NCBI RefSeq assembly: GCF_002105155.1
Contig: NW_019029005.1
Span: 310,001-374,000, forward strand
Reading direction: 5' to 3'
Length of the DNA stretch: 64,000 nucleotides
From: Lobosporangium transversale
Lineage: Eukaryota
The notes under the pieces were generated by a model. The model did not search any database and was not told the DNA's origin. It saw only the letters and a program-made list of their open reading frames with translations. Below, piece after piece: positions 17,387 to 36,611 of the stretch (position 1 is its first letter; every line of letters begins with the position of its first letter). A program made the position numbers and the translations under genes.

Positions 17387-18436
17387 GCAGAGACTAATTT
17401 AGCGCCATCTTACCTGACGATTGCGTGGTCACTGGCGTCATCGTGGCAAAACCTACAGTTGAACCATTTGCCACAACAGTTGGCCTTGAGTTTGCACCCT
17501 CGCATATAGTGTTTGCATCCCAACTGATTTAATTCTTCATTCTAGAGTAAAATTTAGTGTGACAGAAAGTTAGACTCGAAGTCTTCGAAACTTGATCACA
17601 AAGTCCACTGAATGGCAAGAGCACATACATAATATGTCTTTTTCAAATCGTCTGCCCCAGCCTCGCCGCTTTGATTGTCTGATGAGCGTTGCGAGTCATG
17701 CCACTTGGACGACATAAGTTTCTAAACAAAACACAAGGAAGCAAAGAGATATCAGACGATGGTGAAAGTAAGCATAATGAAACTGACAAAACAAAACAAA
17801 AACAAAAGAAAACAATATTGAACAACAGCGGCAAGATGTACATCTTGATATGCATAATATACCTGTATCATTCCAGCCTTGTCTGCAAATTTGATATTGG
17901 GATCTCTTTGGATATCCATGATCTTGCGCCTCAGCTCGTTCTGAGCTTTCTCATCCACAACTGGGACGGATACTGTCCTTCCTGATGTAGCAGCAACAGC
18001 AGCTGTAGGTCCTAATCTTAATTCGTTGCTCGATATATTCGTAGAATCCGAGCTACTTCCTGTTCGCAATACAGTAGCCGATTGTGAGTTTTCAGTGTCA
18101 TTTCTAGATGGGTGATCCTCATTGTTTGCACGGCCATTTAACATCCGCATCTACATCTTCCTCGTCTTCTTCCTCTTCTTCGTCTTCGTCTTCGTCTTCG
18201 TCTTCATCCTCATCCTCATCCACATCCATGTCATTTCCTAATTGATCAACTACCGTTTCATAGCGGTTTCCTGGATTTTCGCTAACAAGAGATTGTATAT
18301 TATGGTTTTGTGAGCCCATAGTTGTGGACTGGAGGTTTGTCTGATGATTGTGATCAGAGGAGCTGGTGGTACTATCCATTGCTTCAAAGTGGAGTGTATC
18401 AAGAGCGTCACTGTATATACTTGGAGTTCTGGACAT
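16262..18436 (-). CDS. RCHY1: CHY zinc finger / RING E3 ligase (Pirh2/RCHY1 family)
   Basis: GCKHYMRGCKLKANCCGKWFNCRFCHD, CMHCQTIQ..CSSC..YYCDVC, YQCPTCWKSLGDM, YHFLYHKCDKCKGYNT; acidic repeat in the N-terminus. Confidence 0.9.
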
Positions 18437-18768
18437 GACTAGACGCAATTTGTTTTGTAAATGAATGTGTATAAAGTGCAGTGAGTGAAGTGATTGTTAA
18501 GAAGGTGATGATGCAAAACTGACGACGTGAGTGGAGAGTTTATTGCAAACATGTCTGATAAGGGAAAAAAAAAAAAAAAAAAAAAAAAAAAGTCACGAAT
18601 GAACTGCAACCAAACGATTTTGCTTTATTCTCCAATTGTGAGGCCCACTATGTCTCCGTTCTTCCTTAGCACCCACCAATCCGTCTACATCTAGAAATCC
18701 TTCGAAAGAAAACCTCATAAGCCCCGAATTTGTGTGAAAGGCTATCCTGTCCACCGTGGGATCCATCT

Positions 18769-19075
18769 GCTATGACCTACATTCCCCGACCAAAAGGAAA
18801 GAGGTAATAGCGAGCAGAAAATGCAAGGCAGGTTTTTGAAAGATAAAATGATCGAAAGATAGGATTGAAATAAACAGAATAAAATAAAAGGAAAAGAAAA
18901 TGAAGCAATCCAAAATTGCAGTAGCGCAGTAATGCCTTGCGATATGTAGCTTCCCGACCAAAAGAAGACCACATATCATGACATTACTCTGTTGTCGAGA
19001 GAATAGTAGTCCAGCCGTTCGAAAGTATTGTTAGATTCAGTAGTTGCAGCTTCCCGACCAAAAGAAGAAGCACCT
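18769..19075 (-). promoter_or_regulatory. Three conserved RNA hairpins (core YUYCUUUUGGUCGGGRA) downstream of the CPS stop codon
   Basis: Copies at ~18769-18811, 18928-18988 and 19042-19074; compensatory stem change CUUCU/GGAAG vs UUCCU/GGGAA; G-U pairs favour minus-strand folding. Confidence 0.65.
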
Positions 19076-19249
19076 TAGGAAACCAACTTGTACTTCGAAT
19101 TAAAAAAAGGAGTGATGTTGATGCAATTAAAAAATAAAAAAGGAAAAAAAAAAAAATAGAAAAAGAAAAAGAAAAAAAAGAAAAAAAGAAAAATAAAAAA
19201 AATAAAATAAAAAAAAAAAAAAAAAGATGGCTAATAAATACATCCATCC

Positions 19250-21635
19250 TTAATAACGACCACCAACAAACTCGGCCCAGGATTTGACCTCAGGAGGAAT
19301 TTTGGATCCATCCTTGCTCTGTGCCAACGTTGCCTTACGCTCTGCACTTTTGTTAAGGGAATCAACAAACAGGACCCGCATTTCTCATCGTTGATAAGAG
19401 AGATTCCTGCATCTACACCAGCACGACGAATCATATACTCTTTATCCGCCACATTCTGGGCACGATTCCGTGCAAGTGAAATCACCATCTGAACGTTCTC
19501 CTTCGCCATAGTCTTATGCATCAATGGCAACGAATTAGGCGAATCAACTAACTTGCAGGAGACACCCGACGCGTCCAAGATCTCTGTGTGTGCTTAGACA
19601 TGGTTACGATGTTGACACCATATTTTTGAAGTCCTTGTCCGTTTTAGCCAAATCGCCCGAGGTAGTCAAGTCATCCGAGCTCAGCAAGACACTTGAATTG
19701 GGGGCAGGCAATTTGAAATTTTGTACACTCTGAATTGCAGCAAGGTAAGCCTCCTCCTTGTCACGTCCAAAGCAGGCTACCTCACCCGTTGACGCCATCT
19801 CAACTCCCAAGAATGGATCAGCACCACCAAGACGAGTCCAAGAGAATTGTGGGACCTTGACAGTTGGTAGTTGTAATCTTTAGCCATCAAGTCTTCAGGG
19901 CAGGTACATCTGTATCACAGAGGGCATGGGTGGCAGTGGTGATGAAATTGTGACCAAGAACTTTGGAGACAAAGGGAAAGATCGAGAAGCACGAATATTA
20001 CATTCAATAACCTTCAAAATGGGTTCCTGGTTGGCATTATCAGAAGTCGCAGGCTTGTGAATAATCTGCATATTGAAAGGGCCGGTGATTTGGAATGCTT
20101 TTGCAACCTGCTCTGCAATTGTCTTCAGTTTGTCCTTGGTTTCGTTCTTGAGGTCACGCGTGGGAAGAACCAATGTAGCATCCCCAGAGTGGACTCCGGC
20201 GTTCTCAACATGCTGAGAGATGGCGTGAACAAACAAGCTTTCCATTGTGGGCAACGGCATCGACGTCAATCTCTTGTGCCCCAGAAATAAACTTGGTGAT
20301 GACAACAGGGTGCAGAGGTGAAACTTCTGCAGCAAAAGTGAGACAGCGGTGCAAGGCTTCGGGAGTGTGGACAACGTTCATAGCGGCGCCAGAGAGGACA
20401 TAGGAAGGACGGATGAGTACAGGATAGCCGACCTGCTCCGCAAAAGTGGACGCTTGGTCTAGAGAAGTCAGCTCCTTCCACTCGGGCTGATCCACTCCAA
20501 TTGAATCGAGGATTTTGCTGAACTTGTAGCGATCCTCAGCGGCGTCAATCATAACAGGAGATGTACCCAGGACATTGGCGTTATTTTCGTGAAGGCGGAG
20601 GGCAATGTTCTGAGGAAGTTGCCCTCCAACGGAGACAACAACGCCTTGTGCCGACTCCTGCTCATAGATATCCATGACACGCTCGTAAGACAGCTCCTCA
20701 AAATAAAGGCGATCACATTCATCAAAATCGGTTGAAACTGTCTCAGGGTTGTAGTTGACCATAACAGTCTTCTTTCCAAGCTCGCGAAAGAGCGCGAATG
20801 CATGAAACGCCGCACCAATCAAACTCAACCGATGATCCGATTCTGTAGACACCAGAGCCCAAGACCATGGTGCCCTTATCATTGAATTCAACATCATGTG
20901 AAGAAGCGTTGTATGTGGTGTATAAATAGTTGGTATCGGCAGGGAATTCAGCGGCGAGTGTATCGATGCGTTTCACGAAAGGTGTAATGCCCATTTGTTT
21001 ACGAGCCTTGCGGATAGTGTCTTCTGTAGTCTTCTGTTGCAACAATCCTGCAATCTGAGCATCAGAGAAGCCTTTGCGCTTCGCCTCGTGCAGAAGCTCA
21101 AAGGGAAGGTTCTGAACATTGAACTTTCCAAGTTCTTTATGAACAGCTACAATGTTTGATAACTTGTGGAGGAACCACTTATCGATCTTGGTGATATTGT
21201 GGACTTGATCAACGGTGTAGCCCTTGTTTAACATAGCATCACCAACTGCGAAGAGGCGGCGATCAGTGGGGTTAGCCAAGACTTTATCGACATCTGGAAA
21301 TTCTAGAGCCTGGAATCCTTTGAACTGAGGGTCAACCTGACGAATTGCTTTTTGGAAAGACTCTTCAAACGTACGTCCGATAGCCATGACCTCGCCGACA
21401 GACTTCATAGACGAGCCAATTTCGCGAGAAACGTGCTGGAATTTTGCCAAGTCCCAGCGAGGGATCTTTGTAACAATATAATCCAAAGATGGTTCAAAGC
21501 AAGCAGTTGTAGTCTTAGTGACAGAATTACGAAGGTTGGGAAGTGTATGACCCAAAGCGATCTTGGCGGCGATGAACGCCAGAGGATATCCAGTTGCCTT
21601 GGATGCCAAAGCACTAATTTATAGAGTAGTTCAGT

Positions 21636-21666
<31 letters not shown>

Positions 21667-23216
21667 CGATAGATTCCAATTCTACAAGTGATGGCCTTAC
21701 CTTGAGCGACTGAGACGAGCATTGACCTCAATGACCTTGTACTCTAAGCTCTCAGGGTGTAGAGCATATTGGACGTTACATTCTCCAACCACCCCTAAAT
21801 GACGGATGATCTTGATGCAGCAGTACGCAACATATGATATTCCTCATCACTCAAAGTCTGGGACGGCGCAACGACAATCGAGTCTCCAGTGTGGGTGCCA
21901 AGGGGATCAAAGTTTTCCATGTTACAAACAGTGATACAGTTGTTTGCTGCATCACGCACTACCTCGTACTCTACTCCTTCCATCCCTTCATAGACTTTTC
22001 GACCAGAATCTGGGCTGAAAGAGTCAAGGACTTTGTTCCGAGAGAGCATAAGCTCGGCAGCATTGGCAGCAAAACCGGAGCCTAGACCTCCAAGAGAGAA
22101 TGCCGATCGAAGATGACAGGGTAAGCCGATCTCCTCGGCTGCAGCCAAAGCATCCTATTATATACAACTGCAACAGATTGGGGCGACAGGGATATCGATT
22201 TCTAAGTTGATTTGAAGTCGAGAGGGGGGGGGGGAGAAACAGATAAGAGGGTGTGACTATATCAGCTACAAACAGTATGTCCAAGAATTCAATATACTTT
22301 ACCATTCAGAGCCTTGGCAAAGAGGTCGCGATCTTCACTGACGAGCAGAGTGCGGATGGGAGTACCGAGTACCTTGACGTTCAAGCGGTCAAAGACGCCC
22401 ATCTTGTCGAGTTGGATACCACAATTGAGCGCTGTTTGTCCACCGAAGGTCAGAAGAATGCCATCAGGTCGCTCGGCTCGATGATGTACTCGATATATTC
22501 GGGAGTGACAGGTAAAAAGTAGACAGTATCTGCGAGGGCATGAGACGTCTGAATAGTGGCAATGTTAGGGTTGACAAGTACAGTTTGAATATTAGACTCT
22601 TTGAGGGCCTTAATTGCCTGGGAACCTAATCGAAAAAAAAGGTCGAAATGAAATCATGTCAGTTATTTAAGAGACGAAAGATCGTTCGCTGATCTTTTTT
22701 CTTTTTTACAAAGCCATCATGAGACTTTCATCTCTTACCTGAATAGTCAAACTCGCCAGCTTGTCCAATTGTCAGACCACCAGAGCCCACAACTAGGACC
22801 TTCTTGACCTCCACTAGAGGCACATCTGCTAGAATCGCTTCTGACACGAGCTTCTTGGTTGTAGTCTTATCAGCTACCGAACCAGAGCTTCGGTGTTCCT
22901 GATGGTTCTCACGGGTCATGGAGAACCATCGTGCTTGAGAACTAGCCATAGATTTGATACCGATCTGTTTGGAAATAGCGGTCTTGTGGACGCTTGATCG
23001 TAAGGATAAAAGTGGCATAGGGATGGAAGAGCGAAGGCTTCCATGTGCAGGGCTAGTCGCTTGATGGAACATAGCTTTCGTGGACAGAAGCGGGAGTGGA
23101 GAAGAATTAATGTTTTTTGAGGCGCGCTGAACCGAGATCAACGAATTGGAGAGGAGAGCAGAAGAGCCCTTGACGGAAACCGCCTTGGGAGCTTTGTTGT
23201 AGAGTTGCTTATACAT
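19250..23216 (-). CDS. CPA2: Carbamoyl-phosphate synthetase large chain, arginine-specific type with a mitochondrial-like presequence
   Basis: [96 protein letters not shown]; no glutaminase/ATCase domains; frameshift-corrected end [12 protein letters not shown]. Confidence 0.95.
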
Positions 23217-23234
23217 GATTGATGATTAATAGAA

Positions 23235-23315
23235 ATCCTTTTGGTCGCTTGGATGTAGGTTTTGCAAAGTGGAATGGTCCTTCTCGTAAAGATGATACTT
23301 GGTCGAATATCAATC
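23235..23315 (-). promoter_or_regulatory. Three GACCA-loop hairpins in the CPS 5' leader
   Basis: mRNA sense: UGAUAUU-CGACCA-AGUAUCA (23312-23293), GAA-GGACCA-UUC (23283-23272), AUCC-AAGCGACCAAAA-GGAU (23254-23235); candidate TATAAA at 23420-23415. Confidence 0.55.
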
Positions 23316-24045
23316 AGTACTGAAAGGCAGAGGTGGAAGCCGGTGAATGGAAGGTGGGGCGGTGAAGAAGAAAAAAAAAAAGAAAAAAAAGAAGAAAAGG
23401 GTGTGGTTGAGTGCTTTATATGAATCGTACATCAAGATCAAAGACTCACCAGATAAGATTTCGAGTCTATTAAGGGCCATTGGCACATAATGATCTGGAG
23501 TGAGTAATAAATTCAAAAAAAAAAAGAGCAGATCTTTCATTTTGAAAGTTGGTTGTTGTTAATGATATTAGACTGTAAGTAGAAGACATCTTCACCTGAC
23601 TTTTATGTATATCTATATTTTTATTTTTTTTTTTTTTATTTTTTTTTTTTGGCGGCAATTAGTCTTCGTCATCATTCATATCTGCAGGATGAATGACATG
23701 AAGCGTGCAAAAGTTGTCGCTCCTGCTGAACAAATCCTTTGGCATGGGGACATTTCAGCCATCCAATTGTTGTGGGATACAAGGACAGGCACAAGGTCAC
23801 AGGCCCTTTCTCTACAGACTAAAAAAAGCATGCTCACGGTAATACAAAAAAAACCCCAACTCTACTCCTCACTCCTACTTTAACTCTCGTACTTCCTTCT
23901 CTTGCTTCTGTTCGCTACTCTTCTCTACTCTCTTCTTCGTCACCGCTTTACTTTTTTTTTTTTTCTTTATTTTTTATTTTTTTTTTGGATCTTTTTTTTT
24001 GGCATCCCTTCTTCCAGTCCACTTCTCATTAATCTATTCCTTGCC

Positions 24046-25983
24046 ATGACTGATCTCAATAACACTAACGGTTCTCCTATTGATGGCGAAGACACTGAGG
24101 TTGTAGATGAGGGTAACCGTAGCATCCTCATGGACATCATCTCCCAGCTCAGCAAAGGCGGCGACCTTCATCGCGTTACTCTTCCAACCTTTGTTCTCGA
24201 ACCCGTAGCATGTTGGAACGTATTACCGATTTCATGTCCCACCCTGAACTCATCATCAAGTAAGCTCGGAAACATTTTACCACACAATTAGACTTTTTTT
24301 TATTCTTAATTTTATAATGCAATTCGCATGTTGATGGCAATTTGCTGCATATTTATTTCTTTACTTTTGGCAACTATGGATGTGGGATTGCATTATTATC
24401 CCAAGATATTGATAACTATGAAGCTTTTTGACAACATGCTTTTTTTCTTTTTGTCCCAATATCTTGGCCTCCCCCGCCCCTTTTTCTCTATTTTATTTTA
24501 TTTTAAGCAATTATGGTTGTACAGTTTACTTTGGATAGTGATTGCTTACTTTGTTCAATTTTTCCATTGCGACTCTAGAGCCAACCAACTTGAGGATCCT
24601 GTGGAGAGATTTGTATCCGTGACCGCTATTTCTTGTCAGGCTGGCACATTAAGCCCAAGGTAAGCTAGTGAAGTATTAGACAATCGCTTCAAGCGCGCAA
24701 AACGCAAGACATGGTGGTCTTTATAATTTTCTATTTTTTAGTTTAGTTTGTGTCTATCAAACATTCTCTAACTATTATTACTTCAATGTTTTTTTAGGGT
24801 GTGAAAAAGCCATATAACCCTATTCTAGGCGAACATTTCCGTGCAAAATGGGAATTCGCAGACGGTACAGAGGCATTTTATGTGGCAGAACAATTTCGCA
24901 TCATCCTCCTATTTCGGTTTACTACTATGCCAGCCCAGAGAATAATCTCAGGATTGTTGGTGATCTTTTGCCTAAATCCAAATTTCTTGGCAACAGCGCG
25001 GCAACGTTAATGCAGGGTGAGATTAATGTCTCATTTACGAACCGTCCTGGCGAGGAATACCTCATTACTATGCCAAATGTCTATGCTAGGGGTATTTTGT
25101 TTGGTACGATGTTGATGGAGTTAGGAGACGTTGCAACTGTAAAGTGTTCGAAATTAGATCTTATTTGCTCTCTTGAGTTTAAAGTGAAGGTACGCAGCTT
25201 AGTGTTTCATGATACTAATCGCTCCGAGATAACTAGAGAGGATAGCTTGGAACTTGTCGACTTAAAGGTCATATATCAATGTTTTTAGGGGTACTTCACG
25301 GGCTCTTACAATGGCATCTCAGGAAAAATCAAACGCATCTCCACAGGGGAGGTTCTTTATGAAATTTCTGGAAAGTGGTCCAACGAAATCTATATTTCTA
25401 AGAAGGTACAAGAATAAGAATGAAGCAAAGGATAAAAGTTTTTTTTTTTTTTTTTTTTTTTGCGGGCCTTTATAGATCTTTTATCGTACTAAGTTACTTT
25501 ATATGGCATAATAGGGCAACAATAAGGAGGTTTATTTTGATGTTAAGACAGCCAGAATCCATCCAAAGATCGTCGCGCCTGAAGATCAACAAGAGTGGAA
25601 CGAATCGCGTCGCCTTTGGAGCAAACTGACTGCAGCTCTAAAAGTTAATAACCAATCACTGGCAACAGAGGAGAAAAGCAAGGTCGAGGACGCCCAACGA
25701 CTCAAATCAAGGGAGCGCGAAGAGAAGGGAACCACGCATGTTTCCAGATATTTTGAGCCGAATGGTGACGGATTCGACCTTAGACTGAAAAAGTAAGTTC
25801 AAATTGAACTGGAGCTGTCATCCATTACACTCAGCGTCCAACGACAATACAGAGTGTTCGTATTCAACATGCCTTTTTTCTTCTGTTCTATCTATTATTA
25901 TTATTAGTATATCATCTGATCCGCAGGTGGCCAAGTCGCAGATTGAGAACTTTATTTTCAATACGCCTGCGCCTCCATCTTAA
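24046..25983 (+). CDS. Oxysterol-binding protein homolog (Osh6/7-like)
   Basis: GGDLHRVTLPTFVLEP, KKPYNPILGEHF, SHHPP, MPNVYARGILFG, ESRRLWS; several introns. Confidence 0.9.
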
Positions 25984-30661: not shown

Positions 30662-33600
30662 ATGCCCCAACTCCAAAATCAAATTCAATTTCAGGTACAA
30701 TTCCAAGATCAATTCCAATTTCAGGAACAAGGACTTCAAAGCCAAAAGCGGCATATAACGCTACAAGAAAACCCGGCAACTCCTAAACGACGCAAAGGTC
30801 AACCTATAGCAGCTGCGAGCAGAGCTGATGTTGTTGCATCCATGGCGAACAAGACAGCATATGCCACCCATAACAAAATAGCTTGTACGTTGGTCCTACA
30901 GGAGGCAGCTAAGGATCGTGAAAAATCCCTAGCACGTCGAACAGTGTATCATTATCAACAATACCAACGGCATTGGGTGGTGCGTGAGCTTATTTGAATA
31001 GTAGTTGAGCAATGCAAAAAATAATGTTTATTGGTAGCAATTAATTGATCCAATATATATAGGATTGGTGCGAGCGTAAGCATTTCATGGATGGAGACAT
31101 GGTCACATACGAGAAATTCTTACTCTATGTGCGTGAACTTGTGGCAGAAGAATCAGTACAGGCGGAGGACGACTTCTATAGCATCAAGCCATTGCGTGTC
31201 AACGTCACAATAGATTATGAAGGTGATCTCCCTTCTCCAGAGACAGTTGATGCATATGTCAAGTCGGTCATATCGCTCTATCAGTCTCAGCGAGCATTAG
31301 TTCCCAACCCTAGCAACCAGCCATGGGCAAGTCTACGTACAGCCGAGTTCAGAGGGATCATTTCATCATACAGAAAAAGGTAGGAGTAGACAGCAGCATA
31401 ATGTAGTATTATTTAACTTTGAGGCCTGAAAATTGAAGGAGTGGATGTTGTTTTAAAACATATAATATTGCATATTGCTAATTGCCCTAATTGCTGTTCT
31501 GCAGGTATCAACAAAGCAATAAATTCAAGAACCAATATCGAATGTCGGTCGACAATGCATACACACCAGCTCAACTCAAGCAGTTCTTGAAACTTTGTTG
31601 GACTCGATCTTACAAACCTCTGAATGGTGGAGCTAAGACTCACAAGCTGCTTGGGGCTCGCGACCGAGTTAGCTTTGCCTTGAATCATTTTTTGATTGCT
31701 CGTGGCCAAAATTTACTTGATGCGAAATTGAGTAGCCTGTTCCCACATATCCATGCAACGGCTGAGAATGGGCGCCAGCTTTCTTTTGCCCTTGTTCTTG
31801 AGATTACACATGGCAAGACAAATCAGGACTTCACTATCTATTCGTCTTGTATTCGCAATAAAGATGTTGAGCTGTGTCCTTTAGGTGCCTTAGGATTTTA
31901 TCTATTAGAGCTATGGATGGTTAGTTCCTGATACTTTTTCTGTTTAATGTTTCGGGGCTGTACCGACATTCGATTGCTCACATCTATTATTATTCGTAAC
32001 TTTTGACTGTAGGACAAAAAAAACGTTCCTGACTTTCATGACGACAAATGGATGGAAACTTTCCTCATTTTCGGCGCTTCTGATAGAACCCGTATGTCCT
32101 CAACCTCACTCTACAAGTAAGTACAGGGTATACATGGCTTTGTATGGTAGTGCAATAGTAATTGATGGATTGACGCTTCCTCGCGACTTCTTGCTCTTAG
32201 GGCTATGAAAGGGGTTATGAATAAGGCAGGCCATCATAGTGATAAAGTTACTCATGCGGGCCGCAAAGCTGGAGCACAACACGCGATGCTCAATGGATCA
32301 TCGCATGACCAGATATCTCAGCAAGGCAATTGGCTTCATTCTCGCTTGGCGATCCATTACCTACATCCAGTTCCAAGAGCTGTTCCGTATTCGATGGCAG
32401 GCTTCACGCGAACTGATGAGGAATTCTGGCTTCCTCGCAACACACTTATTCCTGATCCCAAACTTCAGAGAATGATTTTTCCTTTCATTGAGAACCTGTT
32501 TGAAGGAAACAAAGACTGGGAGCAGCGCATTGAGAATATCATGATGGACCGCCCCGAGGACTACAATCGACCCCTTTTGGAACAAACAAGCCATTGCAAG
32601 GAGGAAATACCAAAAATACGCTTTAATATTATTCTTGCTCATTTTCGGAAGATTATTCTTCAGGATATGGCTGTACTTATGGAAATTACCGACAATGCTA
32701 ATTGCTATTACCAGATTTACCGGATGCACCATATCTGCCAGATGCCAGTCTTTCAATCGCCAGAGTTCGGAGAGTTTAGTGCAAAGTTGCGCCAAACAAT
32801 GAGTGAGGCAAGATCTCCCTCGATGGATAGCCTTGCAGCAAACGCTCCCGCAATAGCACAGAAACTTGATGTTTTAGGAGCACAGCTTTCAGCTCTTGAT
32901 GACTTCATACGATCACGAGAACGCGTTGATACATCTAACTGTAACTTGACTTCTTCATTCAGGACGCATATGTCAAGTGTCAATCGTCAGCTAGTGGCAC
33001 TCTCTCAAGGGATGAGGGGGCCTTCAATGGTGCAGGAAGAACTATAGGCCACACTGTATCTGAGATCAAATCAATCCAAAGAGAGCAAATACGAGAGTTC
33101 GATCTCCAGATACAGCAGGGATGTGGAGCAGGACAGAGGAGCCCATTCACCCCGGAGCAAGGGCACACAGACGGGCACCTGGTTAGCCATGAGCCGGCTC
33201 ATGAGCAAGCGAGCGTTACCAACACCTCTTCACCTTTACAAGGCGAGGATTCATTCTTCAATGAAGTAGACGGAGCGAGAGAAAGAGAAGAAGAAGTAGT
33301 TGTAGAACAAAGACAAGCTCACTCTCAATCTCAACCTCAATCTCAGTCTGGTATGCAAGGTAGAGTTGATTTGGACCAGTTGGCAGAACAGATCGCCATG
33401 CTCTACGTTCAGATTGGAACAACCCTGTCCTCGCACGAAATGCTTCCGCAAGCAGCGCTTCTCAAGGATCAATGGAAGGAATGGTTCCATGGTGTCGATG
33501 GACGGCCCTCGATCTGGGCTTTGAATAAGAGCTCTGACCAAAAAAGAGCAAAATGGCGTTCAGGATTCGATGCACAGAAAAGGAAGTTGTATCAATTCAA

Positions 33601-33772
33601 GAAGGAACTAATTGAGGCTGTGCTAGAAGAGATATCAAAATCAACATGCATGACGTTAGTGGAAAAGGAAGCTGATGCCCTGACGTCAGTTTCCAAGGCT
33701 ATCATCAACGCTGGCTCCAACAATTCCTACATTAAGATGCGTCGAGCACAAAGAAAAAAAGCTTTTAAGTAA
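30662..33772 (+). mobile_element. CryptonF-type tyrosine recombinase gene (Ndc10-II-like YR + C-terminal GCR1_C domain), 4 introns
   Basis: Exons ~30662-30979, 31063-31379, 31505-31919, 32013-32116, 32201-33772; catalytic set LIARGQN (R), GKTNQ (K), KVTHAGRK (HxxR), GNW, IHYL (Y); CIRNKDVELCPLGALGFYL; QWKEWFHGVDGRPSIWAL GCR1_C motif; one shift at G5 33016-33020. Confidence 0.88.
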
Positions 33773-33935: not shown

Positions 33936-35803
33936 TCATTGTGTTGTTGTTATTGGTGTTGTTATCGTTGCTGTTGATGACTGATCAAATTTTGATTTTT
34001 TGGTTGCTGGGGAGTCAGATTCGATGTTGAAACTACCTCTCGTGCTCATTTCATTCTTCATTAATTCGAAAAGAGTAAGGACATAGCCAAATATAAGCTT
34101 GCATCTGTCTCTCACGTCTTCCATTTCTCCTATCACTTCTAAAGATTTAGTCAGTTCCAACCTTCGGTATTTTAGCGTGCCATTTTCCAATGTAGATTCA
34201 ACAAATGCCCATTGAAATGAGTTGGTTACGATTCCATAAGCCCTAAGGGCTCTAGGGCAATCTCCATCCTCTCAGTTCGTTTTCGTTTCCTATTGTGCAA
34301 GGCTACATCGAGCTGTACCATATTTTGTGCAAGGCCTTGCACATGATCGTCCTTCTTCACTTCCGTAATGCCAAGAAATTGTCCCGAATTGATACAGTCA
34401 ACAACAGCAAAGTCCAAAGTCCCATAGCCGCGCGTGCCTTTCAAAGACTGTTGTTGCGAAAGGATCATGTCGGGCGCATAGAGCGATACTGCTCCAACCA
34501 TGAATGCATCGACAATTGTTGATCTTGTAGCCTCATTTGATTGTGCATTAAATGCATAGGCTCTACCTTTGCGAATGCAATCGTCCACAATATGTCCCAA
34601 TATTGTCTCTTCAGCTTCTGTCAAGTCCTCCTTGGGCTTGAGATCAAATTTTGGTAGATCAATGAACGATTGTAATTTATACGTGTCTTGAACTTTTTTC
34701 CAGTCCCATGACGAAAAACTAATGGCTGGGGTAGCCAAAGATATAATGAGCCTTTTCCACTTTTTTTGCTGAAGTTTTTCCAAGATAGAACGAAATTGAA
34801 TGTCGTCTCTCAACAACGGAAATGTCTTCGTTTCCTCATCGTACACAAATATTTGGACTTCCTCGAACTCCTCAAACTCCAAGCAATAATCTCGAAGGCT
34901 TTCTCGCAGGCTTCCTATAGTAGCTGATTTAATATTGGTGGAATATGTGCAAATAACCTTATTCCGATCTCTTTTGTTCACGACGCTCAGTGCTAGAATA
35001 ACAACAAAGTCAGCTCTCTTTCACTATGGTTCCTTTCGACATCTTTCCATTCCACATTCTCACTTATTGTTGATTATCACTTACTAGTATATGTGTCCGC
35101 CTGTAGTTGTTGCTCCAATTCGGCGTTTTTCTTTTGTACCATTTCTAAATCTGCTTCCATATGCAGTTTTTGTTGCCTCAGGTCGGTCATTTCCTTGTGT
35201 AAATTTATGATTATCGTTTCTAAATTTGCGATTGTCGTTTCTAAAGTTACGATCATCGTTCCTAAATTTGCGTTCGTATGCAGTCGTTGCTTCAAGTCGG
35301 CGATTTCCTTTTGTAGATCTGCGTTCGTCGTCTGTAGACTTGCGATTATAGGTTCATTCCCTTCACTTTTAACTTAGGAGAAAGGAATACAAATAGAAAG
35401 TGCGTATGACTTGTTTAATCATAGTTAACTGTGGACAAAAAAAAAAGGCATACCAGTAGAGTGGAATAGTACCTGGTCGTTCAATAATGACATGGATGGT
35501 TTTTTTTGGTGGTACAGCGCCAAAAACCTCAGAGACCTCGCTAGTCGGATCTTCGAGCTTCTCTGGGTTTTTCTGCGCCTTCTGCTCGTCTGTAAGATTG
35601 CTTAATGTAATTGGTTTCTTGGAGATAGAAGAAATGGCGACATGCCAGAGAGTGAGCTTGCTTGCATTAATATCATGAAACTCTAGCTGCTTTTTCTTGA
35701 TGGCATCCTTGAGATGGTCTATCGTTTTTGAAGAGGAGATATCCACTGAGAATATGGAGGAATCTCCATCGATAACGCAAAAGAGGGTTACTTCGGTGGC
35801 CAT
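33936..35803 (-). CDS. Crinkler (CRN) family protein: ubiquitin-like CRN N-domain, coiled coil, PD-(D/E)xK nuclease C-domain
   Basis: TLFCVIDGD..TIDHLKDAIK..LTLWHV..TIHVIIERP; nuclease NEATRS, GTLDFAVVD, GITEVKK, QGLAQNMVQL, YGIVTNSFQWAF; 2 introns; one shift near 34270. Confidence 0.88.
35195..35275. repeat. 21-bp degenerate tandem repeat encoding heptads in the CRN linker
   Basis: atcgtttctaaatttgcgatt / gtcgtttctaaagttacgatc / atcgttcctaaatttgcgttc; encodes ANLGTMI VTLETTI ANLETII. Confidence 0.75.
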
Positions 35804-36611
35804 GGTAGTGTTATGATTGTTTGTTTCAATAGTTTCAATGGAGCGAGTATTTTAAAGGATGGCGATAGCGCAAAGCCACAATGCGCCTTGCAAATAGGAA
35901 GAGAATGTTATCCATTTTTGATTCTTATTTTAAAATATAATAAATGAATAGCTATATTTGTGATTCATATTGACGCAAGGAACTCACCATAAGAGAATGA
36001 TACGGATAGATAGATGGAAATCAAAAAGGGAGGACTGAAATATCATGTGACGACATATATAGGATCACAGGAAAAATTTTGTGACCCTGTGCACGCTACT
36101 GAGACTCTTTTGTCATGAGCAGATCCAATAAAGAAATGATTGGCATCGTCCATGTTTCAGTCGCCGACAGGTTTTAAGTCAGTCGTCCTAATCATATTCG
36201 TTACGAGATGTGATTAAGGAAGCAAAGTATACGAATATCTGAATGAATATAGCTCTACCCATCACTCTGGTTGGATTCTTTAAGTACTTTGCAATTTGGG
36301 AGATCAAAGAGCAAAGTGCACAGTCCTCTTGAGTTCTGTGGGTAGCACAACAATCAAACAAGGCAAGTTTTCCACGATTGTTTACATACTTTTCTCCAAC
36401 ACCCTGAATGTCTGGATGCCGTTGGGACTGACGTTATCAAGGATGTGAGACTGCTGATGGATTAGAGATTTTATCTCTGTTCTGAAGTGTATAAATATAA
36501 TATATAATATATATATATATATATACTAAATATCTACTGAGTCTGACTTTTATTGATCGTGGGGTCTGTTGACGAAAGAGGATTGGAACAAATAAGGTTT
36601 TTCTCTTTAGC

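Follow-up and report, generated by a model that had tools for sequence, protein, structure and literature searches.

The 64,000-nucleotide stretch of the Lobosporangium transversale genome analyzed here (the window; NCBI RefSeq assembly GCF_002105155.1, contig NW_019029005.1, positions 310,001 to 374,000) contains cpa2, the gene for the large subunit of the arginine-type carbamoyl-phosphate synthetase (CPS), and the message of this gene carries complementary motifs at its two ends: three hairpins with a UUGGUC loop behind the stop codon, and three GACCA sites in the leader just ahead of the AUG. The elements are real and conserved across genera, for the leader sites apparently so, and they very likely act at the level of RNA. 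We infer that pairing between the two ends is the most economical explanation for them, and we favor, with a probability of roughly 0.6, a model in which loop-initiated 5'-3' pairing, present in three copies, would close the cpa2 messenger RNA (mRNA) reversibly and tune its translation.

The gene lies on the minus strand and had been described in the initial annotation as a carbamoyl-phosphate synthetase, an assignment that we can confirm. Hidden Markov models (HMMs) of carB and the CPSase large subunit match the minus-strand gene at 19250-23216, and a 291-amino-acid (aa) piece of its product has 96% identity to P0001 (named cpa2, L. transversale) and 100% identity, over 93% of its length, to P0002 (named L. 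transversale); other Mortierellaceae cpa2 proteins have 82-94% identity to the same piece. Judged by these matches, the gene is cpa2 of Lobosporangium transversale. Its reading frame is interrupted many times in the window. Because an RNA contig described below shows single-base gaps at such places, we attribute the frameshifts to assembly errors.

Each of the hairpins behind the stop codon, W1, W2 and W3 (Table 1), consists of a 6-bp stem and a UUGGUC loop above a longer lower stem that is specific to the copy. All three form in local folds and in the fold of the whole mRNA, with an unpaired probability of 0.98-1.0 for the loop, and in 7 of 7 hairpins the sense strand gives a more stable fold than its antisense counterpart. 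Among the 173 six-pair hexaloop hairpins on the minus strand, only ATATAT is a commoner loop than UUGGUC. The word TTTTGGTCG occurs four times in the 64-kb window, where the chance mean is 0.58 and none of 100 shuffles reaches four; its sense-strand copies stand behind the stop (19063-55, 18963-55 and 18795-87) and its complement stands in the leader (23247-39). W1 and W2 have 20 identical bases in common. W3 is enclosed, together with a second arm, in a larger domain in which AAAACCUGCC pairs with GGGC-U(U/A)AUG-AGGUUUU, leaving a 5-nucleotide (nt) bulge below a branched region, both in the window and in the ortholog considered next.

Orthologs were sought by a metagenome scan with a C-terminal alignment, which returned five loci. 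One of them, L001, is the single true cpa2 ortholog, with 86% protein identity and 74% coding-DNA identity to L. transversale cpa2, and the other four have 26-30% identity. As in the window, cpa2 is followed in L001 by a CHY zinc-finger gene and a PWWP gene in the same order. Behind the L001 stop there are exactly three sense-strand copies of the hairpin (1723, 1775 and 1899), located 170-350 nt past the stop and ~650 nt or more ahead of the ATG of the next gene; the only AATAAA between the two genes, at position 2011, is found ~105 nt past hairpin 3. Apart from these elements and a poly-U tract, blastn yields no alignment between the 3' untranslated regions (UTRs) of the window and L001.

Over the six hairpins of the two loci, the 10-mer CUUUUGGUCG is invariant (6/6) and the stem cells are paired in 36 of 36 cases, although two of the six pairs differ at both bases and another two at one base. 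In the upper stem the 5' arm CUU is constant, the partner arm is GGG or GAG, and the next base is only ever U or C. The six-copy stem pairing is equaled by 6 of 500 shuffles, a figure that is not a probability because the six copies are related and the structure was drawn from them, and sliding the partners against each other cuts the pairing to 56-72%. With a hairpin model built from the six copies, which themselves score 39-41 bits, the best other score anywhere in the window or L001 is 11.6 bits. Thus the three hairpins with a loop complementary to the leader that the initial annotation had placed behind the CPS stop are real, both in the local and whole-mRNA folds and in their conservation in the ortholog.

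Evidence at the level of RNA comes from one sequencing run (X1) of one study. The record of the run does not state RNA; we treat it as such because its contigs skip introns, which they do in cpa2 and in both neighboring genes. Leader sites 2 and 3 are part of a spliced contig over 19260-23282, and all three 3' hairpins are part of a second contig over 18629-19124. The initial annotation had raised the possibility of a message that ends ahead of the 3' motifs; the second contig places the hairpin region within RNA. Contig cover is absent from 23283-23715, which holds hairpin 1 of the leader, from the U-rich 19125-19259 and from ~18460-18628, and we use these gaps neither for nor against the elements. 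The X1 contigs are filtered and cannot show transcript ends, and none of them joins the coding contig to the hairpin contig; we infer a single transcript with both leader and 3' hairpins from their position and the AAUAAA. The contig depths (38 in the coding region, 49 in the hairpin region and 215-409 in the next gene) are flat figures and not expression levels.

At the other end of the message, GACCA is enriched in the leader beyond chance. When the leader was shuffled 20,000 times with its dinucleotides preserved, three or more copies appeared in a fraction of 0.0004 of the shuffles and two copies of CGACCAA in none; in 16 of 3,000 leader shuffles a 12-nt stretch found a Watson-Crick complement in the 3' UTR. 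The test is a fair one because the 3' loop was defined independently, by conservation. Moreover, the invariant 3' 10-mer has one other occurrence on either strand of the 64 kb, and this is its complement in the cpa2 leader, at site 3.

The three leader sites are not equally structured. Hairpin 1 is firm, with a loop unpaired probability of 1.0 in the 114-nt leader, and also forms in the whole-mRNA fold; it gives way to another fold in two leader folds tried, that of 107 nt and that of the leader plus coding sequence. The best fold of site 2 is a 3-bp GGA/UCC stem that includes the G of GACCA, and the AUCC/GGAU hairpin drawn earlier for site 3 differs from the minimum-energy fold of the leader. 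The initial annotation had proposed three hairpins at each end. Its motifs, coordinates and pairing lengths hold up, and of its 5' hairpins hairpin 1 alone is firm; because sites 2 and 3 fold weakly, the 5' side is better described as one hairpin plus two weakly structured sites than as three hairpins. An AUG-started upstream open reading frame (uORF) is absent from the leader: the 254 nt upstream contain a single ATG, at 23432, which precedes the TATAAA.

L001 ends inside cpa2, and we therefore sought gene calls that read through the leader. Among 265 proteins fetched, 80 have a MYKQ-type start, and one of these 80, P0127, bears an upstream extension. P0127 is a spurious open-reading-frame call from a Podila-type contig, reading through the leader; the mature part of P0127 shows full identity to proteins named Podila minutissima and Mortierella antarctica and 58% identity to the L. 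transversale protein. The extension contains VLIDIRPSII, and the 30 nt of the window at hairpin 1 (23320-23291) encode the same 10 codons with 0 mismatches, a match that is unique in the window, where the next best place has 6 mismatches. GPSH follows in P0127 and fits site 2 with 1 mismatch, which is equaled at 7 of 42,660 background positions. VLIDIRPSII, GP and RP lie 99, 75 and 27 nt before the P0127 AUG, compared with 89, 64 and 31 nt in the window; after RP, P0127 reads QD and not KG, with 3 mismatches in 12 nt relative to the AAAGGA of the window. Read through this translation, the positions of the three GACCA sites appear to be kept in a third lineage as well. Additional searches, next to the protein-by-protein scan of the 265, turned up neither another leader read-through protein nor, among the matches listed, a further close relative matching residues 1-59.

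A conserved upstream peptide in the VLIDIRPSII frame was considered and rejected. The frame is in register with CPS in P0127 and out of register in the window, and an in-frame stop 12 nt before the window AUG, inside RNA-covered sequence, also rules against it. The comparison of motifs among orthologs that the initial annotation had suggested is thus favorable at the 3' end, where three hairpins are kept in L001, and appears favorable in the leader by way of P0127.

In the predicted folds the UUGGUC loops are complementary to the CGACCA loop of hairpin 1, the 5'-proximal hairpin. In co-folds, site 3 pairs over 12 bp with W1 (-5.9 kcal/mol) or with W3 (-18.5 kcal/mol), and the duplex with W3 extends via ACCUACAU and AUGUAGGU to ~30 bp, a feature that is new relative to the initial annotation. 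After opening costs the leader is predicted to bind W3 at -21.4 kcal/mol, a value that 2 of 2,883 other 66-nt windows equal, these being purine-rich runs; the corresponding range with W3 in its full domain is -11.8 to -14.8, and with the UTR from 19110 to 18625 as partner only the short 12-bp duplex persists, at -6.7 to -7.8. When the 12-mer is held fixed, 5 of 800 shuffles bind W3 as well as the leader does.

The fold of the whole 4,425-nt mRNA leaves all four hairpins closed and their loops open, and the long UTR duplex is absent from it. The folding program does not model loop-loop kissing. Because the whole-mRNA fold admits kissing and not the long duplex, we rank the kiss as the conserved core of the interaction and the long duplex as a species-specific alternative. 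The circularization by kissing loops put forward in the initial annotation is retained as a proposal, with a change of geometry: its pairing lengths and exact complementarity stand, whereas pure kissing fits hairpin 1 only and site 3 is predicted to invade the top of the stem of a 3' hairpin (12 bp).

A fourth stretch nearly complementary to site 3, AAAUCGUUUGGUUGC (18620-18606, minus strand), closely follows the AAUAAA and has no clear counterpart in L001. By eye, the leader segment AAAACCUACAU (23263-23253, minus strand) resembles the 5' strand of the W3 domain and could pair with AUGAGGUUUU (18718-18709, minus strand), for which the bulged AUG could serve as a toehold.

We suggest that closure of the message would begin when open UUGGUC loops kiss GACCA over 5-7 bp, best at hairpin 1. 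The start of the loop, UUGG, fits the YUNR pattern in 6 of 6 loops. At site 3, 20-31 nt before the AUG, the contact would then zip into the wobble-rich top of the 3' stem to give 10-12 bp. A role of site 3 as second pairing partner would account for a 5' arm that is constant, CUU, while its partner arm varies, and the next stem base, U or C, pairs in either form with the G of the leader; a protein could also impose this pattern. With three copies, the closure would be multivalent but easily broken, and a scanning ribosome would open it in each round. A factor bound to the conserved bulged domain around W3 would come to lie next to the cap, in the manner of the 3' enhancers of plant viruses. 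As to the outcome, we lean somewhat toward enhancement or recycling rather than repression.

Several observations weigh against this model. There is no compensatory change between the ends, loop and tag being invariant wherever they can be read, and no second species gave both ends, L001 providing the 3' end only and P0127 the 5' end only. Further cpa2 orthologs are absent from the viral-contig and genome-contig searches, which leaves L001 as the one ortholog locus, and the stem covariation rests on six related copies and on a structure drawn from them. Conservation at the 5' end rests on one protein translation, that of a single full-start protein in 80. The two A's of GACCA are not proven in P0127 because third codon positions stay ambiguous in a translation, and 2.8% of shuffles of the extension peptide contain three [RG]P pairs. 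Because the P0127 leader has QD after site 3, neither the full 12 bp nor the ACCUACAU extension is conserved as such. W2, moreover, forms no 12-bp duplex with site 3 in the co-fold and binds weakly (-2.0 kcal/mol), and when the 4,425-nt spliced transcript is folded to minimum energy, W3 stays closed and 18620-18606 is the partner of site 3. In the viral cases of STNV TED, RCNMV and CXTE, complementarity is present, yet mutants gave no support for a role, according to sections of PMC5712577.

A rival view is that an RNA-binding protein acting in stability or localization recognizes the 3' hairpins as an array of sites, like iron-responsive element arrays, with leader elements that do something separate and ends that do not pair. 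Protein sites, too, have this appearance of a constant loop repeated three times on stems that vary, and no covariation is seen between the ends. What this leaves unexplained is that the sole complement of the invariant 10-mer in 64 kb falls in the cpa2 leader and that three such sites are kept there; we consider it unlikely, and place it first among the rivals. Next, and likewise unlikely, we place pairing between molecules, in which cpa2 dimers or networks, or loops engaged with another message (for example that of the small subunit), would co-localize synthesis. Drosophila bicoid and oskar provide examples of loop-loop mRNA dimers, and threefold valency at both ends would suit multimers. 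Local concentration should nevertheless favor pairing within the same molecule, and no other copy of the hairpin occurs in the window or L001, where the next best candidate has 11.6 bits against 39-41. Also improbable is an extension of end-to-end pairing, namely that the three-by-three RNA clasp of Mortierellaceae cpa2 is a nutrient switch, with amino-acid status flipping closed and open forms that translate differently. In its boldest form, the ACCA ends of uncharged tRNAs would compete with the GACCA tags for the UGGU loops, and such a tRNA-competed clasp, if true, would sense amino acids by RNA only and would do so across the two ends of a eukaryotic mRNA.

A related proposal, a T-box-like sensor whose UGGU loops would take either the leader GACCA or the ACCA end of an uncharged tRNA, so that starvation opens the message, draws on the match between GACCA and the tRNA NCCA end and on a cpa2 product that makes an amino-acid precursor. 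In T-boxes, as described in parts of PMC7583486, NCCA is bound by UGGN located at the 5' edge of an antiterminator bulge of 7 nt, and the anticodon and elbow are gripped as well. T-box riboswitches also have a stem I with a specifier loop, in a 5' leader. In cpa2, UGGU occupies positions 2-5 of an apical loop of 6 nt that belongs to the 3' UTR, and neither anticodon- or elbow-gripping domains nor an Rfam T-box match is seen; four base pairs alone are weak, and the complement reaches 10-12 nt, beyond a tRNA end. We give this very little credence, and marginally more to the idea, still very improbable, that CGACCAAAAG is a transcription-factor DNA site used in either orientation. A motif of that kind would look complementary of its own accord, and its three downstream copies, upstream of the next gene and on the same strand, would serve the promoter of that CHY zinc-finger gene. 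But all six copies face one way and sit on stems kept via G-U and A-U pairs and double changes, the sense strand folds better, the copies in L001 are near the cpa2 stop, before AATAAA and a long way ahead of the next ATG, and an RNA contig covers the 3' hairpins. Chance, or remnants of a local duplication or of transposon ends, is strongly disfavored and comes last: the 20 identical bases common to W1 and W2 and the capacity of inverted repeats flanking a gene to recall transposon ends are set against three copies kept in an ortholog with 74% coding-DNA identity and an otherwise unalignable UTR, and against neighboring genes that stand in the same order there.

The remaining features of the region are collected with the elements in Table 1. 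From the sequence, TATAAA and the C/T-rich tract that follows it are likely the core promoter of cpa2, and AAUAAA is likely its poly(A) signal. Compared with the RNA contigs, the assembly carries numerous insertions and deletions of one base between 14500 and 26000 of the window, and the frameshifts in cpa2 and its neighbors are artefacts. Public models of the cpa2 protein differ in length (P0002, 1057 aa; P0001, 1223 aa), and a MYKQLY start is common across Mortierellaceae. Some 130 residues (~130; window 23216-22830, minus strand) precede the CPS domain, are rich in S, K and R and include few acidic residues; we take this N-terminal part to resemble a mitochondrial presequence, as a candidate. 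One other 110-nt minus-strand stretch with three GACCA occurs in the window, at 14791-14724 in the region of the PWWP gene. Elsewhere, open frames at 668-1168, 32166-33772 and 34226-35851 resemble mobile or repeat-family genes; judged by their motifs, these would presumably be an RNase H-like frame, a pair resembling tyrosine recombinases, and a nuclease-like frame preceded by a Crinkler-like N-terminus.

Table 1. Features of the cpa2 region, in coordinates of the window.
Feature	Positions	Strand	Basis
cpa2 coding region (arginine-type CPS large subunit); ATG 23216, TAA 19250	19250..23216	-	HMMs, protein matches, introns, RNA contig
cpa2 introns, three, GT..AG	22738-22626, 22302-22202, 21700-21614	-	sequence and contig pieces
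TATAAA, then C/T-rich tract (~23400-23330)	23415..23420	-	sequence; role presumed
5' hairpin 1, GAUAUU-CGACCA-AGUAUC; core stem 23311-23294, loop 23305-23300	23283..23325	-	folds, P0127 codon match
5' site 2, GGACCAUUCCAC, at most 3-bp stem	23269..23280	-	fold; GPSH of P0127, 1 mismatch
ACCUACAU, complementary to AUGUAGGU in 3' arm of W3	23253..23260	-	co-fold; control 5/800
5' site 3, CGACCAAAAGGA, 31-20 nt before AUG	23236..23247	-	exact complement of invariant 3' core
3' hairpin W1 core, CUUCUU-UUGGUC-GGGAAG, on longer irregular stem (~19095-19015)	19050..19067	-	folds and copy alignment
3' hairpin W2 core, on long stable stem (~18988-18928)	18950..18967	-	folds and copy alignment
3' hairpin W3 core, UUCCUU-UUGGUC-GGGGAA, stem extends ~18811-18769	18782..18799	-	folds and copy alignment
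Conserved domain enclosing W3 and second arm	18709..18836	-	same fold, near-identical basal strands in window and L001
AAUAAA	18624..18629	-	sequence; role presumed
CHY zinc-finger/zinc-ribbon gene, downstream of cpa2	18436-16262	-	family read on L001 copy
PWWP gene, downstream	~15860-13800	-	family read on L001 copy
Oxysterol-binding protein gene, divergent, upstream of cpa2	24046-25900	+	

Rfam gives no family at gathering level over 17500-25000, where there are two sub-threshold matches, neither of them on the elements, and our literature searches found no description of a paired-end element in cpa2. The words carbamoyl, kissing and Mortierella do not occur in the main text of two fungal RNA-motif screens, one of which covers Ascomycota only and the other of which does not name Mucor either. 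Closure of an mRNA by base pairing is well established in plant RNA viruses and reported for few cellular eukaryotic messages (p53). If the pairing model holds for cpa2, this device would prove to be in cellular use too, conserved and in three copies in a housekeeping gene of a fungus; the gene would also provide an easily mutated model for the effect of mRNA closure on translation, and would point to a layer of control on the large subunit of the arginine-specific CPS in early-diverging fungi. Industrial lipid producers, for which nitrogen status is important, belong to the Mortierellaceae.

Control of the arginine-specific CPS after transcription, as we propose for cpa2, has a precedent in the other subunit of the enzyme. 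The small subunit is encoded by arg-2/CPA1. In N. crassa arg-2, an arginine attenuator peptide is specified by a uORF, according to the sections of PMC5640933 available. The two cases differ in that arg-2 concerns the small subunit and works by ribosome stalling, whereas the cpa2 leader is without AUG from 23431 to the start codon. A parallel to the proposed first contact is found in plasmid antisense systems, where YUNR loops speed RNA pairing (parts of PMC4485353). Like these, the cpa2 loop starts UUGG, and the predicted course is a kiss followed by progression of a helix into the wobble-rich stem. The plasmid systems are, however, bacterial and employ a separate antisense RNA that is a full-length complement, whereas both partners in cpa2 belong to one eukaryotic message.

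Among cellular eukaryotic mRNAs, the predicted pairing of the cpa2 UTRs may be compared with that of human p53 mRNA, in which the 5'CS and 3'CS of the UTRs pair from a nucleation point at an exposed bulge and bound proteins set translation, and such long-range UTR contacts are very uncommon among eukaryotes (both from portions of bioRxiv 10.1101/2022.07.24.501301). In p53 one duplex is formed where cpa2 would have three repeated loop-tag pairs, the sequence is another, and the setting is mammalian stress control and not fungal metabolism. With regard to architecture, the cpa2 message is like plant-virus RNAs with 3' cap-independent translation enhancers (3'-CITEs), in that apical loops of the 3' UTR are complementary to a near-5' hairpin several kilobases away and one such loop sits on a branched domain at the 3' end. 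TBSV probably uses the same GACCA/UGGUC letters; these words do not appear in the review text. The 3'-CITEs of Tombusviridae/Luteoviridae (BYDV BTE, TBSV/CIRV Y-shaped, ISS, PTE) engage in 5'-3' kissing loops, as sections of PMC5712577 and PMC5893793 describe, and the contacts in plant viruses bring 3'-bound factors to the 5' end (PMC5712577, in part). In contrast to these uncapped viral RNAs, cpa2 is a spliced cellular gene with an AAUAAA, its message presumably capped and polyadenylated, and it has three copies of the element at each end. The cpa2 element would work in the manner of a 3'-CITE kiss or of the p53 duplex, and is a member of neither family.

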